A stretch of DNA of 64,000 bases from Ruminiclostridium sp. (GCA_045533495.1 JAZSHW010000132.1:1453-65452), one strand, 5' to 3'. Positions 1,046 through 29,280 are shown, numbered from the stretch's first letter. Program-made: numbers and translations. The notes: generated by a model from the letters alone, not told the origin.

Positions 1046-2323
1046 ATGGATACACATATCGACACCAAATGCCTGCACACAGGCTGGACACCAAAACAAG
1101 GCGAACCAAGACAGCTCCCTATCTATCAGAGCACAACCTTCAAGTATGATACAAGCGATGCAATGGGCAAGCTTTTCGACCTTGAAGCAAGCGGATATTT
1201 CTATACCCGCCTTCAGAACCCCACAAACGACAGTGCAGCTGCAAGAATCTGTGCTTTAGAGGGCGGCTATGCTGCTATGCTGACTTCTTCAGGTCAGGCG
1301 GCAAACTTCTTTGCTATCTTCAACATCTGCGAGGCCGGAGATCACTTCATTTCCTCCTCCGCAATCTATGGCGGCACATACAACCTTTTCGGTGTTACAA
1401 TGAAGAAGATGGGTATTGAATGTACTTTCGTTGATCAGAATATTTCTGAAGAAGAGCTTTTAAAGCTTGTTCGCCCCAATACAAAGGCTATCTTCGGTGA
1501 AACAATCACAAACCCCACAGTAACAGTATTCGACTTTGAAAAGTTTGCAAGAGTTGCTCACAAGGTGGGCGTTCCCCTTATCATCGACAACACTTTTGCA
1601 ACACCTATAAACTGCCGTCCTTTCGAGTGGGGTGCAGATATCGTTACACACTCCACAACAAAGTACATCGACGGTCATGGTATAAGCGTAGGCGGATGCA
1701 TCGTAGACAGTGGTAACTTCGACTGGGATAAGTACGCTGATAAGTTCCCCGGACTTACAACTCCCGATGAATCCTATCACGGCATTACTTATACAACAAA
1801 GTTCGGCAAGGCGGCATATATCACAAAGGCTACCTCCCAGCTTATGAGAGATTTCGGTTGCATACAGTCACCTCAGAACGCCTTCTATATCAATATCGGT
1901 CTTGAAACTCTGCACCTGAGAATGAAGAGACATTGCGAAAATGCATTAAAGGTAGCAACATATTTAAAGGACAACGAAAAGGTTGCCTGGGTACACTACC
2001 CTGATTTAGAAAGCGATGATTACAACGCACTCGCAAAGAAGTATCTCCCTAAGGGCTCCTGCGGTGTAATGTGCTTTGGTATCAAGGGCGGCAGAGAGCA
2101 GTCGATAAAGTTTATGGATAGCTTAAAGCTCTGCACAATTGCAACCCACGTTGCAGACAGCCAGACCTGTCTTTTACACCCTGCAAGCCACACTCACAGA
2201 CAGATGACAGATGAACAGTTAAGAGAAGCAGGTGTAGCTCCTGATCTTATCAGACTTTCAATCGGTCTTGAAGACGCTGACGATATCATAAAGGATATTG
2301 AACAGGCACTTGCACTTATATAA
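1046..2323 (+). CDS. metY: O-acetylhomoserine sulfhydrylase, PLP-dependent Cys/Met metabolism family
   Basis: The 428-aa ORF aligns by eye to the MetY/CysD family (IYQSTTFKYD, YTRLQNPT, HSTTKYIDGHG with the PLP lysine). ATG at 1046 preferred over GTG at 1037 because of the purine-rich RBS. Confidence 0.92.
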   Translation: MDTHIDTKCLHTGWTPKQGEPRQLPIYQSTTFKYDTSDAMGKLFDLEASGYFYTRLQNPTNDSAAARICALEGGYAAMLTSSGQAANFFAIFNICEAGDHFISSSAIYGGTYNLFGVTMKKMGIECTFVDQNISEEELLKLVRPNTKAIFGETITNPTVTVFDFEKFARVAHKVGVPLIIDNTFATPINCRPFEWGADIVTHSTTKYIDGHGISVGGCIVDSGNFDWDKYADKFPGLTTPDESYHGITYTTKFGKAAYITKATSQLMRDFGCIQSPQNAFYINIGLETLHLRMKRHCENALKVATYLKDNEKVAWVHYPDLESDDYNALAKKYLPKGSCGVMCFGIKGGREQSIKFMDSLKLCTIATHVADSQTCLLHPASHTHRQMTDEQLREAGVAPDLIRLSIGLEDADDIIKDIEQALALI

Positions 2324-2376: not shown

Positions 2377-2402
2377 ACCCGTGAAGATAATTCTTCACGG
2401 GT
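2377..2402. repeat. Left copy of a 26-bp direct duplication (whole terminator hairpin)
   Basis: acccgtgaagataattcttcacgggt is identical to 2712-2737. It is itself a 10-bp-stem hairpin. Confidence 0.9.
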
Positions 2403-2711
2403 CAGACTGAAGACAAACTCACGCACCGCAAAAATGCACAAAATTTTGCAGTAAAATTACAGATATACAAAAATAGCAATAAAAAAGTTTAGGGGAGCCG
2501 AAAACGGCTCCCCTAAAGCATTTTGCTTAGTTTGTCACCCGCCCCTCGACTGTACCTTATGCGAACACTTTGCTGTGCGTCGTCCTGACGCACTTTGTGT
2601 GTTCACTTTACGGCATCCTTGCCGTTTGTACGCCTATCGGGGCGGTTTCCTCCTCTGCGTGCGTTTTTCTTCGTCTGCTCTCGTGTAGCCAAAGTCTTTG
2701 TTTACACGCTG
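2403..2711. mobile_element. 309-bp ORF-less repeat element, copy A (putative non-autonomous insertion)
   Basis: About 92% identical to 7755-8064 by manual alignment. No ORF of 60 aa or more. Bracketed by a target-derived 26-bp duplication. Internal 13-bp stem-loop (2488-2517) and an 87-nt core identical between copies. Confidence 0.6.
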
Positions 2712-2744
2712 ACCCGTGAAGATAATTCTTCACGGGTTATTTTG
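2712..2744 (+). terminator. metY intrinsic terminator (right copy of the duplicated hairpin plus T-run)
   Basis: 10-bp stem acccgtgaag / cttcacgggt, loop ataatt, followed by ttatttt. Only this copy retains the T-run. Confidence 0.7.
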
Positions 2745-3106
2745 AAATCAGACGTATAAATTGAAATTTAACGCTCCGCTAGGTTATTGTAGCCCCCAAC
2801 CCCCTTTCCCCCTTCCCCCTGAGGAAAGGGGGGAAATACGGGGGCTGCCGCCCCTGCGACCTTGCTTGGGGCCACGCCCCAAACCCCTTTTATATCGGCG
2901 TTTGTGGGCTATTTAGCATCCTGTTTTAATTAAACCGTTTCCGTAGGGGCGTCTATCAGACGCCCGCCGCCGTAGGCGGAATTTGGTGAACGCCACGCGT
3001 TCAAACAACAATTCAACTCTCACAATGGTGTACTCCTGCCGTTTCACCTGCTACGGCTAAGCAGAGTATTGTAAAAGGCAGGAATCGCCAGCGGTGGCAC
3101 ACCGCC
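2738..3106. repeat. Mosaic of GC-rich REP-like hairpin modules (BIME-like region A)
   Basis: Shares modules with 7376-7724: ataaattgaaattt (2756-2769), ccgtaggggcgtctatcagacgcccgc (2941-2967), ccgcc-gta-ggcgg, gaacgccacgcgttc (2988-3002), gccagcggtggc. No ORF. Confidence 0.55.
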
Positions 3107-7341: not shown

Positions 7342-7376
7342 AATCGCAGGAGGCAAAGTCTTCTGCGATTTTTTTG
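7342..7376 (+). terminator. Intrinsic terminator after the rhodanese gene
   Basis: Stem aatcgcag / ctgcgatt followed by T7. Confidence 0.65.
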
Positions 7377-7724
7377 AACGCGTGGCGTTCAATCCAAATT
7401 CCGCCTTTGATAATACTTGTGGATCACAAAGGTTTGCGAACGGCGGTTACATACGATAATTGTAAAATAAATTGAAATTTGACAGCGGGTTGTACCATTA
7501 AAAATTGCGATGACTTATGCGGGCGACTAAGTAGTCGTTGGTCTAAAGACCACGACTTTTACGATATTTAATTTGTTGGATTTTGTTGATTGTATCGGTA
7601 TTTGCGGGCGTTGTCTATCCCCGTTTTAATTGCTCTATTCCGTAGGGGCGTCTACCAGACGCCCGCTTAATTCTGCACAAACCCAACCGCCGAAGGCGGA
7701 AATGCCAGCGGCGGCTCACCGTAA
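7376..7724. repeat. Mosaic of GC-rich REP-like hairpin modules (BIME-like region B)
   Basis: Shares modules with 2738-3106: gaacgcgtggcgttc (7376-7390, inverted relative to A), ataaattgaaattt (7467-7480), ccgtaggggcgtctaccagacgcccgc (7640-7666), ccgcc-gaa-ggcgg, gccagcggcggc. No ORF. Confidence 0.55.
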
Positions 7725-7754
7725 AAATCCCACATCCTTTCGGATGTGGAATTT
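7725..7754. repeat. Left copy of a 30-bp direct duplication (whole terminator hairpin)
   Basis: aaatcccacatcctttcggatgtggaattt versus 8065-8094; 29 of 30 positions identical. Confidence 0.88.
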
Positions 7755-8064
7755 TAAACTGAAGACAAACTCACGCACCGCAAAAATACACAAAATTTTG
7801 CAGTAAAATTACAGATATACAAAAGTATCAATACAAAAGTTTAGGGGAGCCGTTTTCGGCTCCCCTAAAACATTTTTGCTTACTTCGTCAACCGCCCCTC
7901 AACTGTACCTTATGCGAACACTTTGCTGTGCGTCGTCCTGACGCACTTTGTGTGTTCACTTTACGGCATCCTTGCCGTTTGTACGCCTGTCGGGGCGGTT
8001 TCCTCGTCTGCATGCGTTTTTCTTCGTCTGCCAGCGTGCAGACAAAGACTTTGTCTACACGCTG
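7755..8064. mobile_element. 310-bp ORF-less repeat element, copy B
   Basis: Same orientation as copy A, about 92% identical, with an 87-nt identical core (7902-7988). The near-perfect 16-bp terminal hairpin lies at 8032-8064. Confidence 0.6.
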
Positions 8065-8104
8065 AAATCCCACATCCTTTCGGATGTGGGATTTATCTTT
8101 TTTT
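8065..8104. terminator. Hairpin plus T-run between the rhodanese side and the flotillin operon (right copy of the duplication)
   Basis: 13-bp stem aaatcccacatcc / ggatgtgggattt, then atcttttttt on the plus strand. The matching minus-strand U-run now lies left of the other copy (7723-7727). Confidence 0.6.
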
Positions 8105-8112
8105 ATTTAGAA

Positions 8113-9495
8113 TTACTTATCAAGAGATGCAGGAGCGTCAATCTTTTCGCCTAAAAACTTAGGTAATTCCATACCTGCCTGATTGAACATTTCTGCCATA
8201 GGAGGTACTGACTTCATCATACCGCTGATAAAATCTGCTGTAGCAGTCTTACCTTCACCGTTAGAACCGCCGTCCCATACAGTAACCTTGTCGATCTTGA
8301 TGTTCTTGATAGCTTCAACCTGAATACGCATAAGCTCTTCCATATTGTTTGCAAGGATAAGCTTGATTGCACTGTCTGCGTTGCCGCCGGCAGCAGTAAC
8401 GAGTTCTCTCATACCGTTTGCCTGCTTCATTAAGATTTCCTGAGCACCGAGAGCCTGAGCTTCCATCTTTGCATATAAAGCGTCAGCTTCACCCTTTGCG
8501 GTACGGCGAGCAACTTCAGCCTGTGCTTCCGCTTCGATGACTGCCTGTTCCTTAGCAATGTTAGCCTTAACGATAACGTCAGCCTGCTGAGTTGCAGTTT
8601 CGAGCTGTGCACGGGTTTCTTCTGCCATTTTCTGAGCTATGTAAGCTTCTTCCTTAGCCTTAGCCGCCTGAACAGCTTCTGCAGCTGTAGCGATACGCAT
8701 AGCTTCCGCTTCTTTTTCTCTTCTTAAAGCTTCTGACTGAGCAACTTCGATCTTGGATTCGTTTTCACCACGGATAGCAAGAGCGTTTGCAGCAGCAACC
8801 TGGATACGCTGGTCACGCTGAGCGTTAGCCTGACCGATTTCACCGTCTCTGTCCTGTTCAGCAACAGATTTCTTCGCATCGTTGATAGCCTTAGCAGCAG
8901 CTTCCTTACCAAGAGCCTCGATATATCCTGATTCATCGTTGATGTCGGTTACGTTTACGTTGATAAGTCTTAAACCGATCTTCTTAAGTTCGATTTCTAC
9001 GTTGTTGGAAACTGCAAGAAGGAACTTATCACGGTCGTTGTTGATTTCTTCGATTTCCATTGTAGCAACTACAAGACGGAGCTGACCGAATACGATATCC
9101 TTAGCAAGTTCCTGAATCTCGTTCATACGAAGACCTAAAAGTCTTTCTGCCGCATTCTGCATAACACCGGGTTCTGTTGAGATACCTACTGTAAATCTTG
9201 AAGGTACGTCAATACGGATGTTCTGCTTTGAAAGTGCGTTCTTAAGGTCAACGTTGATTGACATAGGTGTAAGGTCCATAAACTGATAGGACTGGATGAT
9301 AGGCATAATGAATGCCGCACCACCGTGGATACACTTAGCACTTCTTGCCTGACCGCTGGAGTCACTACCAACCTTACCGTAGATAACGAGTATCTTATCG
9401 GAAGGACACTTGCGGTAGCGGGAAAGAATTCCCATGAATAATGCGAAGAGTATGATTACACCTACGCAAATTCCAACTAAAATTTCTGGTGCCAT
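8113..9495 (-). CDS. Flotillin-like SPFH domain protein (FloT/YuaG type)
   Basis: 460 aa. N-terminal TM segment, SPFH/band-7 region, and a long Ala/Glu-rich coiled coil (AEAQAEVARR...). Confidence 0.88.
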   Translation of the reverse strand: MAPEILVGICVGVIILFALFMGILSRYRKCPSDKILVIYGKVGSDSSGQARSAKCIHGGAAFIMPIIQSYQFMDLTPMSINVDLKNALSKQNIRIDVPSRFTVGISTEPGVMQNAAERLLGLRMNEIQELAKDIVFGQLRLVVATMEIEEINNDRDKFLLAVSNNVEIELKKIGLRLINVNVTDINDESGYIEALGKEAAAKAINDAKKSVAEQDRDGEIGQANAQRDQRIQVAAANALAIRGENESKIEVAQSEALRREKEAEAMRIATAAEAVQAAKAKEEAYIAQKMAEETRAQLETATQQADVIVKANIAKEQAVIEAEAQAEVARRTAKGEADALYAKMEAQALGAQEILMKQANGMRELVTAAGGNADSAIKLILANNMEELMRIQVEAIKNIKIDKVTVWDGGSNGEGKTATADFISGMMKSVPPMAEMFNQAGMELPKFLGEKIDAPASLDK

Positions 9496-28191: not shown

Positions 28192-29280
28192 TTAGTTTTT
28201 CTGGCCAAATTCAAGATTCTCGTGAGAGTCATCCTTCTTTTCGCTCTTTCCTCCGCCTAACTTAAAGAGGATGGAATCGCCAAGGGACTTCTTGGGTTCA
28301 GCAGGCTTTGCTTCTTCCTTCTTAGGTTCTTCAGCAGGCTTTGCCTCTTCCTTCTTAGGTTCAGCAGGCTTTACTTCTTCTTTCTTAGGCTCAGCAGGCT
28401 TTACTTCTTCCTTCTTGGCTTCAGCAGGCTTTGCCTCTTCCTTCTTAGGTTCTTCAGCAGGCTTTGCCTCTTCCTTCTTAGGTTCTGCGGGCTTTGCTTC
28501 TTCCTTCTTAGGTTCTGCGGGCTTTGCTTCTTCCTTCTTAGGTTCTGCGGGCTTTGCTTCTTCCTTCTTGGCTTCAGCAGGCTTCGCTTCTTCCTTCTTA
28601 GCTTCAGCAGGCTTTGCTTCTTCCTTCTTAGGTTCAGCAGGCTTTGCAAAAGCACTGTCCTCAGGCTTTCTCTTTTCAACTTCCTTTACTGTATTTATAA
28701 CGAATTCGTTTTCACACTGTGCAGGGATACCCTTGATATATTCAATATGTGCATTATATGCCGCAAGGATCTTTGCTGTATAATCAGCAACTTCCTTCTT
28801 CGTTCTCTGTAATGCAATCTGTTCTCTTTCTGTACGCTGCTGCATTATAAGATGGATTTCATCAGACTTTGCATTAGCGTCAGCAATGATACCCTTCGCC
28901 TTTTCCTGAGCCGCAGCAACATCCTTGTCGGACTGTTCCTTTTTCTTAGCCGCATCTTCTTTAGCATTATTTATAAGCTTTTCTGCCTTTTCCTTAGCTT
29001 CCTTAAGAAGCTTTTCAGCTTCTTCCTTTGCTTCGTTTTCAATTGCAATAGCCTGTCTTTTTGCAATAAGAAGTGCGTCACGGAGAGCATCCTCATCATT
29101 GCGGTATTCCTTGATCTTTTCAGCTAATATTTCAAGCTTCTTTTCAAGCTCTTCATTTTCATTCTGAAGACCAAGATATTCAACAGATACATCTCTTAAA
29201 AATCTGTCTACCTCTTCTACACTGTAGCCGCCCTTCTTGACGGTGTCAAATCTTTTTCCGACAATATCATTTGCGTTCAC
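28192..29280 (-). CDS. divIVA: DivIVA-domain protein with long Lys/Pro/Ala/Glu decapeptide repeat tail
   Basis: N-terminus (DIVGKRFDTVKKGGYSVEEVDRFL) is the DivIVA lipid-binding motif, followed by a coiled coil and about 11.5 copies of KPAE(P/A)KKEEA. Confidence 0.88.
   Translation of the reverse strand: MNANDIVGKRFDTVKKGGYSVEEVDRFLRDVSVEYLGLQNENEELEKKLEILAEKIKEYRNDEDALRDALLIAKRQAIAIENEAKEEAEKLLKEAKEKAEKLINNAKEDAAKKKEQSDKDVAAAQEKAKGIIADANAKSDEIHLIMQQRTEREQIALQRTKKEVADYTAKILAAYNAHIEYIKGIPAQCENEFVINTVKEVEKRKPEDSAFAKPAEPKKEEAKPAEAKKEEAKPAEAKKEEAKPAEPKKEEAKPAEPKKEEAKPAEPKKEEAKPAEEPKKEEAKPAEAKKEEVKPAEPKKEEVKPAEPKKEEAKPAEEPKKEEAKPAEPKKSLGDSILFKLGGGKSEKKDDSHENLEFGQKN
28288..28644 (-). repeat. In-frame 30/33-bp tandem repeat array inside divIVA
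   Basis: Unit gcaggctttgcttcttccttcttaggttc repeated about 12 times with point variants. Encodes KPAEPKKEEA. Confidence 0.95.

Follow-up and report, generated by a model that had tools for sequence, protein, structure and literature searches.

We analysed a stretch of 64,000 nucleotides from Ruminiclostridium sp. (hereafter, the window), in which a 309-bp element interrupts the terminator of a metY-type gene. The element is very probably a transposase-less MITE that derives from the IS1182 family (ISEfa7-like subgroup), is moved in trans, finds its hairpin targets by their structure and leaves the whole hairpin duplicated. It has the anatomy of a MITE, the hairpin repeats that flank members of its family are true duplications of the entire target hairpin, and its ends are those of IS1182-family insertion sequences (ISs). 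The coordinates of the features are collected in Table 1.

Table 1 Features of the two window copies, of their surroundings and of the full-length reference IS (positions are those of the window, except for the last line).
Feature	Position	Strand	Details
metY-type gene	1046..2323	+	O-acetylhomoserine aminocarboxypropyltransferase/cysteine synthase; TIGR01326
Left target hairpin, copy A	2377..2402	.	identical to 2712-2737; no T-run on the + strand
MITE copy A	2403..2711	+	309 bp; transposase-less; member of the 'type-1' family
Left TIR	2403..2420	+	CAGACTGAAGACAAACTC
Internal hairpin, 13-bp stem	2488..2517	.	terminator-like in the scan on both strands
Extra module of about 70 nt	2557..2626 (approximate)	+	three-way junction with two hairpins
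Inner inverted copy of the left end	2657..2677	+	GCGTGCGTTTTTCTTCGTCTG; pairs with 2403-2426 and closes the interior (folds, pair counts)
Terminal fold-back palindrome with right TIR	2678..2711	+	right TIR as reverse complement, CAGCGTGTAAACAAAGAC
Right target hairpin, copy A	2712..2737	.	followed by the T-rich tail 2738-2744
Left target hairpin, copy B	7725..7754	.	30 bp; one mismatch (A/G) against 8065-8094
MITE copy B	7755..8064	+	310 bp; 91.6% identical to copy A
Right target hairpin, copy B	8065..8094	.	30 bp; T-run after it; downstream of the flotillin-like gene
Flotillin-like gene	8113-9495	-	copy B located behind the gene
pB8 full-length IS	L319 1308-2786		Macrococcoides canis plasmid pB8, NZ_CP091282.1

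Both window copies point the same way. Aligned globally, they agree in 284 of 310 columns and differ by 25 mismatches and one indel (91.6% identity), in agreement with an earlier note on this DNA, which had counted about 24 differences by hand and put the identity at about 92%. Copy B begins with TAA in place of CAG. The ORF list over both copies holds just ORFs of 41–61 aa, none of which is conserved, and the IS1182 profile, run against all ORFs, finds no transposase of that family in the 64-kb window. The hairpin that copy A has used as its target is the terminator of the metY-type gene, with convergent genes on either side of the insertion; the product, an O-acetylhomoserine sulfhydrylase, scores 590 bits with the NCBIfam model TIGR01326 (cutoff 495). 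Exact-protein lookups of MetY and of the flotillin-like protein returned no record.

The hairpins on either side of copy A are identical 26-mers, ACCCGTGAAGATAATTCTTCACGGGT, each with a stem of 11 bp and the loop TAAT. The description of an ORF-less insert bracketed by identical 26-bp hairpins is therefore confirmed, with a stem one base pair longer than the 10 bp first given. By our own estimate, about 5e-7 exact 26-mer repeats at a distance of 335 bp are expected by chance in 64 kb, and the pair at copy A is not a chance occurrence. Within each pair of hairpins, at copy A as at copy B, the loops have the same orientation, and the repeats are thus direct rather than inverted; the 30-bp hairpin of copy B differs in sequence from the 26-bp hairpin of copy A. 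At copy A the T-rich tail TATTTTG (2738-2744) follows the right hairpin only, as had been noticed before, and the left hairpin is also terminator-like in the minus-strand scan. By analogy with five filled and empty pairs of sites found elsewhere, removal of the element and of one hairpin copy would restore an ordinary metY terminator.

These five pairs are insertion sites for which orthologous empty contigs exist: comparison of reconstructed empty sites with the fetched loci shows exactly one hairpin and no element in each, and one of the pairs concerns a type-1 copy (L047, filled, against L092, empty). Since the empty sites have a single hairpin, the repeats that flank the elements are true target-site duplications. 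At 28 distinct sites of insertions bounded by terminal inverted repeats (TIRs), the direct repeats measure 17–36 bp, and the foot of the stem lies 0–2 nt from both junctions at all 28. Targets are unrelated in sequence between near-identical copies. Both orientations of the insert relative to the T-run occur, and no bias between them is demonstrable.

Tandem terminators do occur in bacteria, and one could suppose that the paired hairpins arose beforehand by local duplication of a terminator, the element having inserted between them or having been captured there by recombination. We consider this extremely improbable: the five orthologous empty sites, with exactly one hairpin each, refute it for the family, and each locus has flanking repeats of its own, which in every case stop at the element junctions. 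The earlier note had held the flanking duplications to be derived from the target, had proposed cuts at both bases of the hairpin and had suggested looking for empty sites. Each of these points is borne out, by a duplication length that follows the size of the hairpin, by the position of the junctions at the stem feet and by the single hairpin at the empty sites. The hairpin-sized duplication itself, known to the earlier note from the window only, recurs at these 28 sites, but about one third of the type-1 copies lack both the terminal palindrome and the right repeat. Right ends that stop at ...CGTCTG(CAG) are found at L004, L009, L010, L014, L016, L017, L034, L065 and L070, and at L009 a fragment of another MITE type comes directly after the short right end.

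Individual hairpins have been used more than once. Two different MITEs were inserted independently at one and the same hairpin (L014 3412-3627 and L095 4945-5221), which is empty in L041, L105, L062 and L090, and two MITEs in tandem at one hairpin leave three hairpin copies (L036 2985-3211 and L066); L010 is listed with the latter two for repeated use of one hairpin. A separate observation concerns differences between the left and right hairpins of single insertions: at L007 (4624-4648 and 4891-4915), L005 and L099 these are compensatory, palindrome-symmetric changes, and at L099 (1365-1386 and 1561-1582) the left stem is perfected, while the right copy and the empty sites retain a mismatch. 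Such palindrome-symmetric differences may be the trace of a fold-back intermediate.

The ends of the element are terminal inverted repeats of about 18 bp, which the earlier account of the ends had overlooked. Read as its reverse complement, the right end is CAGCGTGTAGACAAAGTC; within the element, the left TIR CAGACTGAAGACAAACTC matches the form CAGCGTGTA(A/G)ACAAAG(A/T)C at 12–14 of 18 positions. A TIR of the form CAG.CTGT.GA.AAAC is common to at least six ORF-less types of 162–602 bp, whose interiors are unrelated. Besides type 1, these comprise GC-rich elements of about 170–240 bp, elements of 162, 165–176 and 239 bp, and elements of 512–602 bp, almost all with whole-hairpin repeats on their flanks. 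The same ends around exchangeable interiors are the signature of MITEs mobilised in trans. The window element thus combines TIRs, a small size without a transposase ORF, a target-site duplication, established through the five filled and empty pairs at related loci outside the two window sites, and autonomous elements with the same ends, all of which come from other taxa. Two TIR-bounded elements (L009 9110-9621 and L014 9708-10309, 512–602 bp) are flanked by whole-hairpin repeats and have interiors that are structured, ORF-less and without an Rfam match.

Pattern scans found further copies at six loci in Ruminiclostridium and Ruminococcaceae MAGs and in one viral contig, and at least 120 metagenome contigs carry copies; counted by place of insertion, these copies amount to about 56 distinct sites. 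With few exceptions the left end (T·CAGACTG) lies directly against a hairpin, and this hairpin is found again after the right end (CACGCTG·A) at about half of the sites. A BLAST search of the element against phages gave one partial match, in a contig of human-faecal origin whose record is labelled 'Bacteriophage sp.' and unverified; this relative is 239 bp long, and the palindrome AATAATTTGTAATTATT, 17 bp, stands as a repeat on both of its sides. Searches against plasmids gave no match, either for the element or for the end of the element at L144.

Other repeats accompany the MITE copies in the window. Right after the right hairpin of copy A, the GC-rich stretch 2749-2926 resembles, in reverse orientation, the interior of a second MITE type (compared with L087 4122-4291 and L140 5897-6136); its ends are decayed (CAGACGTATAAATTG... 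and ...TTTAGCATCCTG) and no clear hairpin repeat is seen. A sister MITE that inserted long ago is the probable origin of this stretch. The palindromic module TTCCGTAGGGGCGTCTAYCAGACGCCCGC at 2939-2967 and 7638-7666 adjoins both MITE copies, and an inverted pair of 22 nt (2987-3008 and 7370-7391) likewise lies next to them; module and pair constitute another small intergenic repeat family. Further away, at 28258-28653, a repeat finder reports ten tandem copies of a 30-nt unit, 61–92% identical to the reference copy.

A scan with the window's own TIR matched three ends, each of which abuts a hairpin. At two of the three, a 49-aa C-terminal transposase fragment (PF13751, 'IS5/IS1182 family transposase') adjoins the TIR, and these fragments are contig-end cuts of a multi-copy IS of Macrococcoides caseolyticum, for which 6/6 sites abut different hairpins. 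The left TIR of copy A is identical at 18/18 positions to an end of this IS; it agrees at 16/18 positions with either end of the M. canis pB8 IS, and equally with ISEfa7 at the left end of the latter. The TIRs of the pB8 IS are CAGACTGTAGACAAAGTC and CAGAATGTAGACAAACTC, each at 16/18 against the window element, and the left TIR of ISEfa7 is the same as that of the pB8 IS. The transposase of the pB8 IS scores 444 bits with the IS1182-family model NF033551 (cutoff 270) and also matches PF05598, PF01609 and PF13751; the IS stands between two direct copies of an entire 22-bp hairpin, AAGCGACCAATATAGGTCGCTT. Just beyond the right hairpin of this IS, two inverted TIRs (TTGAAGACAAACTTAC...GTGAGTTTGTCTTCAATCTG) make up a solo fold-back of 50 bp (L319 2809-2858), which lies against another hairpin and may represent a minimal element that consists of ends only.

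Full-length relatives with the same behaviour occur in gut and rumen. In a gut contig (L324) we find an IS of 1,644 bp, flanked by a 25-bp whole-hairpin repeat, with a transposase that scores 447 bits with NF033551 (cutoff 270) and is 48% identical to the pB8 protein. An IS of 1,704 bp, present in metagenome contigs and MAGs, has whole-hairpin repeats of 22–24 bp at L352, L356 and L358, and its close relatives bear the names of Firmicutes from rumen and gut; for the gut IS, the close relatives have names from Lachnospiraceae, Sharpea and Pseudobutyrivibrio. The ends of the full-length ISs are fold-backs, made of the TIR and its inverted copy, and in this they are like the terminal palindrome and the long closing helix of the MITE. 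Among 21 full-length copies, the left end abuts a hairpin in 19 and the right end in 14, and at distinct Macrococcoides, Staphylococcus and Enterococcus sites this is true of 10/10 ends. The whole hairpin is duplicated in 5/21 copies only; most of the others have two different hairpins, and one ISEfa7 copy has a hairpin on a single side. At L342-L361 the 1,704-bp IS lies mostly between two different hairpins, with the same hairpins re-paired across contigs, an arrangement consistent with chimeric assembly across the repeat as well as with IS copies having recombined. We take ISfinder to list direct repeats of 0–60 bp for the IS1182 family.

The window element thus has ends homologous to those of the IS1182 family and palindromic, hairpin targets, but neither NF033551 nor the combination of PF05598, PF01609 and PF13751 is found in it; because it encodes no protein, we file it as a derivative of IS1182 and not as an IS. 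The ISEfa7-like subgroup (for example ISEfa7 of Enterococcus, the pB8 IS and gut and rumen ISs of 1.6–1.7 kb such as L324 and P0247/P0249) has TIRs of the CAGACTGTAGACAAAGTC form, at 16-18/18, and shares with the window element the fold-back ends, insertion against hairpins and whole-hairpin duplication (22–25 bp, five copies). The window element differs in that it has no transposase gene and in its interior of nested palindromes, which is unrelated to that of the ISs. The longer autonomous relative with a recombinase that the earlier note had proposed to search for has accordingly been found, as full-length IS1182-family ISs in other taxa, and its statement that the duplication fits no known family has to be withdrawn: the TIRs match IS1182-family ends at 16-18/18 positions, full-length members duplicate whole hairpins, and hairpin targeting by the IS1182-family element IS1272 is in print (PMC4923244, PMC5678879), together with a predicted doubling of the entire stem-loop (PMC5678879).

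Several other IS1182-type candidates were set aside. The 37 IS1182-family loci in viral contigs have GGGGCTGT-type TIRs and no evident whole-hairpin direct repeats in their flanks, and belong to a different subgroup; in a protein search from one of them, the relatives were all at least 79% identical. IS1272 and other IS1182 elements in plasmids and viral contigs have TIRs that are related but different, GAGTCTGGGACATAAA and GGGGCTGTAAAAAAAC, and no such duplication. Plasmid pRUM has no annotated IS1182, and the IS1182 profile matches an unannotated 229-aa ORF in it. The ends of ISAs1 (E. coli H-repeat), which we also compared, are unrelated.

The nearest full-length ISs come from other Firmicutes (Macrococcoides, Enterococcus) or from gut or rumen contigs. 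No TIR pairs 0.7–5 kb apart, as expected for an autonomous copy, were found in any of the loci, and neither phmmer with IS5 (InsH) nor the IS1182 profile found a transposase among all ORFs of the window and of about 130 MITE-bearing loci. Among the matches listed, no full-length IS with the exact TIR of the Oscillospiraceae copies came from that clade. The lack of a transposase in the MITE-bearing genomes sampled would be expected if a different enzyme were at work on ends that are similar by convergence, be it another IS5-superfamily or ISAs1-like DDE transposase or an integrase of the Cas1 or casposase type; the product of Cas1 integration is a second copy of an entire palindromic repeat, and casposases leave duplications of 14–15 bp. 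We regard this as improbable, since 16-18/18 end positions are common to bona fide IS1182 ISs with the same kind of target and the same duplication, ISAs1-type ends are unrelated, and no cas1 gene was seen in any locus.

Nested DNA palindromes are the best reading of the interior of the element. Each strand folds much more stably than its shuffled controls (z = -10 and -12), and compensatory changes are numerous in the interior helices of 28 unique type-1 copies; the stem of the hairpin at 2488-2517 covaries across them. The paired cells comprise 1739 Watson-Crick, 21 G-U, 15 A-C and 15 other combinations, and the same 28 copies show no wobble excess or strand asymmetry in these helices. Since G-U pairs are about as frequent as A-C and the helices are 97% Watson-Crick, they point to palindromes at the DNA level and not to an RNA gene; the reading as an RNA gene was dropped upon this negative test of G-U against A-C asymmetry. 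In the internal hairpin the loop faces opposite ways in the window copies, GAAAAC in A (2501-2506) and GTTTTC in B (7854-7859), and is also flipped among gut copies, a sign of palindrome dynamics in DNA. The module of about 70 nt is present in the window copies and missing from the human-gut copies of 235–241 bp in the alignments. The central 24-mer gave 0 matches in a first scan of metagenomes, and this module is specific to the window subfamily.

The folding of both strands, the many compensatory changes and the well-known insertion of class C group II introns after terminators might also suggest a mobile structured RNA, whether a retroelement or something of the ribozyme or intron kind, such as a class C group II intron without an ORF, that would reach terminators by way of an RNA intermediate; the flanking hairpins would then be due to recognition of RNA 3' ends or of terminators. 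This is most unlikely on several grounds. Rfam gives no match, whether at its gathering cutoffs or by E-value, and the helices are almost purely Watson-Crick (G-U 21 vs A-C 15). The same TIRs bound unrelated interiors, which means that the interior is not the determinant of mobility, and identical ends are found on DDE insertion sequences. The duplication of the target is absent from group II introns, and inserts stand in both orientations relative to the T-run.

Strict maintenance of Watson-Crick pairs would also suit a single-stranded DNA intermediate, and an element that is built of hairpins, has a fold-back at its end and targets hairpins could in principle be a non-autonomous IS200/IS605 PATE (palindrome-associated transposable element) or another HUH-mobilised element, for which subterminal hairpins are read as folded single-stranded DNA at the replication fork. 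IS200/IS605 elements, however, have no TIRs, make no target duplication and insert 3' of a short fixed motif, whereas the window element has both TIRs and a duplication; its TIRs match those of ISs that encode IS1182-family DDE transposases, and no Y1 or TnpB gene was seen beside any copy. We give this reading very little credence. An IS110-type, bridge-RNA-guided element, which has no TIRs and whose own RNA reads a specific target sequence, does not agree with targets that are unrelated in sequence or with the presence of TIRs.

Derivation from an ISEfa7-like IS1182 element is thus the reading that we retain, and the duplication is best explained by a staggered cut, guided by structure, at the two bases of the hairpin. 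An ISEfa7-like transposase would act in trans and recognise the TIRs of about 18 bp, which are themselves parts of the terminal fold-back hairpins. The target would be chosen by its structure, as a palindrome that can fold into a hairpin or cruciform; an intrinsic terminator would be the typical case. Both 3' ends of the element would then be joined at the opposite feet of the palindrome, one per strand, so that the stagger equals the length of the palindrome, and gap repair would leave one full hairpin copy on each side of the insert. We infer that the attack falls at the 5' feet of an extruded cruciform, and that such a transposase acts in the window organism. A terminator may be a harmless landing site: the left hairpin would lose its T-run, while the right copy and the internal hairpin remain. 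The mobility model does not need the read-through transcription of the element from the host gene that the earlier note had envisaged. The main reading has against it that a transposase was found neither in the window nor in any of the approximately 130 MITE-bearing loci, that the nearest full-length ISs come from other taxa, that only 5/21 full-length copies show the duplication, that about one third of the type-1 copies lack the terminal palindrome and the right repeat, and that IS1272, the best-studied member of the family, deletes the hairpin.

IS1272 and TnSha1, IS1182-family elements of staphylococci, target hairpins and terminators without sequence specificity, and delete the stem-loop (PMC4923244, PMC5678879). 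The window element resembles them in its structure-dependent choice of hairpins and terminators without primary-sequence specificity. The 16-bp TIRs of IS1272, GAGTCTGGGACATAAACC, are related in pattern, at 8/18 positions identical to the window element, and the left-end TIR is tandemly duplicated in some copies (PMC4923244, PMC5678879). The outcome differs: IS1272 deletes or replaces the stem-loop, and the window element duplicates it whole, a result seen at each of the window copies and, overall, at 28 sites. This outcome corresponds to pathway b of Fig. 13 of the published model, in which the element's 3' ends are joined to the 5' feet of the cruciform, with doubling of the entire stem-loop as the predicted result (PMC5678879). 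In the literature we found no explicit description of whole-hairpin duplication or of such MITEs; hairpin targeting by the IS1182 family has already been published, doubling of the entire stem-loop has already been predicted, and a new class of mobile element is not established.

Classical bacterial MITEs such as Correia, RUP and bcr1 are likewise short, ORF-less, bounded by TIRs, multi-copy, intergenic and mobilised in trans by DDE transposases, but they make short duplications of fixed length, 2–9 bp, against the 17–36 bp set by the target palindrome here. Elements of the IS1202 group make long target duplications, which fall into fixed-length classes, and have TGT ends; IS1397 and ISKpn1 insert in REP palindromes, IS1397 in the loop and with a duplication of 3–4 bp. 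Unlike the window element, neither the IS1202 group nor IS1397 duplicates a whole hairpin of variable length.

A broader suggestion is that the IS1182 subgroup and its MITEs transpose by reading structure throughout, with the end fold-backs and the extruded target cruciform read as equivalent four-way or hairpin junctions and with an intermediate in which the flank is a single-stranded fold-back. This would explain a stagger set by the hairpin, the strict Watson-Crick interior and the palindrome-symmetric differences at L005, L007 and L099; we hold it tentatively and think it rather unlikely. If true, a DDE transposase would behave like a junction-specific integrase, and these elements would be a natural reporter of cruciform or hairpin formation in vivo.

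At the strength of the main reading, the vague remark in databases that some IS1182 members target palindromes becomes a clear case with proof from empty sites, and a large superfamily of MITEs in gut and rumen Firmicutes, with its autonomous relatives, inserts at the feet of hairpins and duplicates the hairpin whole. For annotation, this means that tandem identical terminator hairpins mark such insertions. For gene expression, an insertion parts a terminator hairpin from its T-run and adds an internal hairpin that is terminator-like on both strands. For the mechanism, the stagger would be set by the structure of the target and not by the geometry of the transpososome, which is unusual for a DDE transposase.
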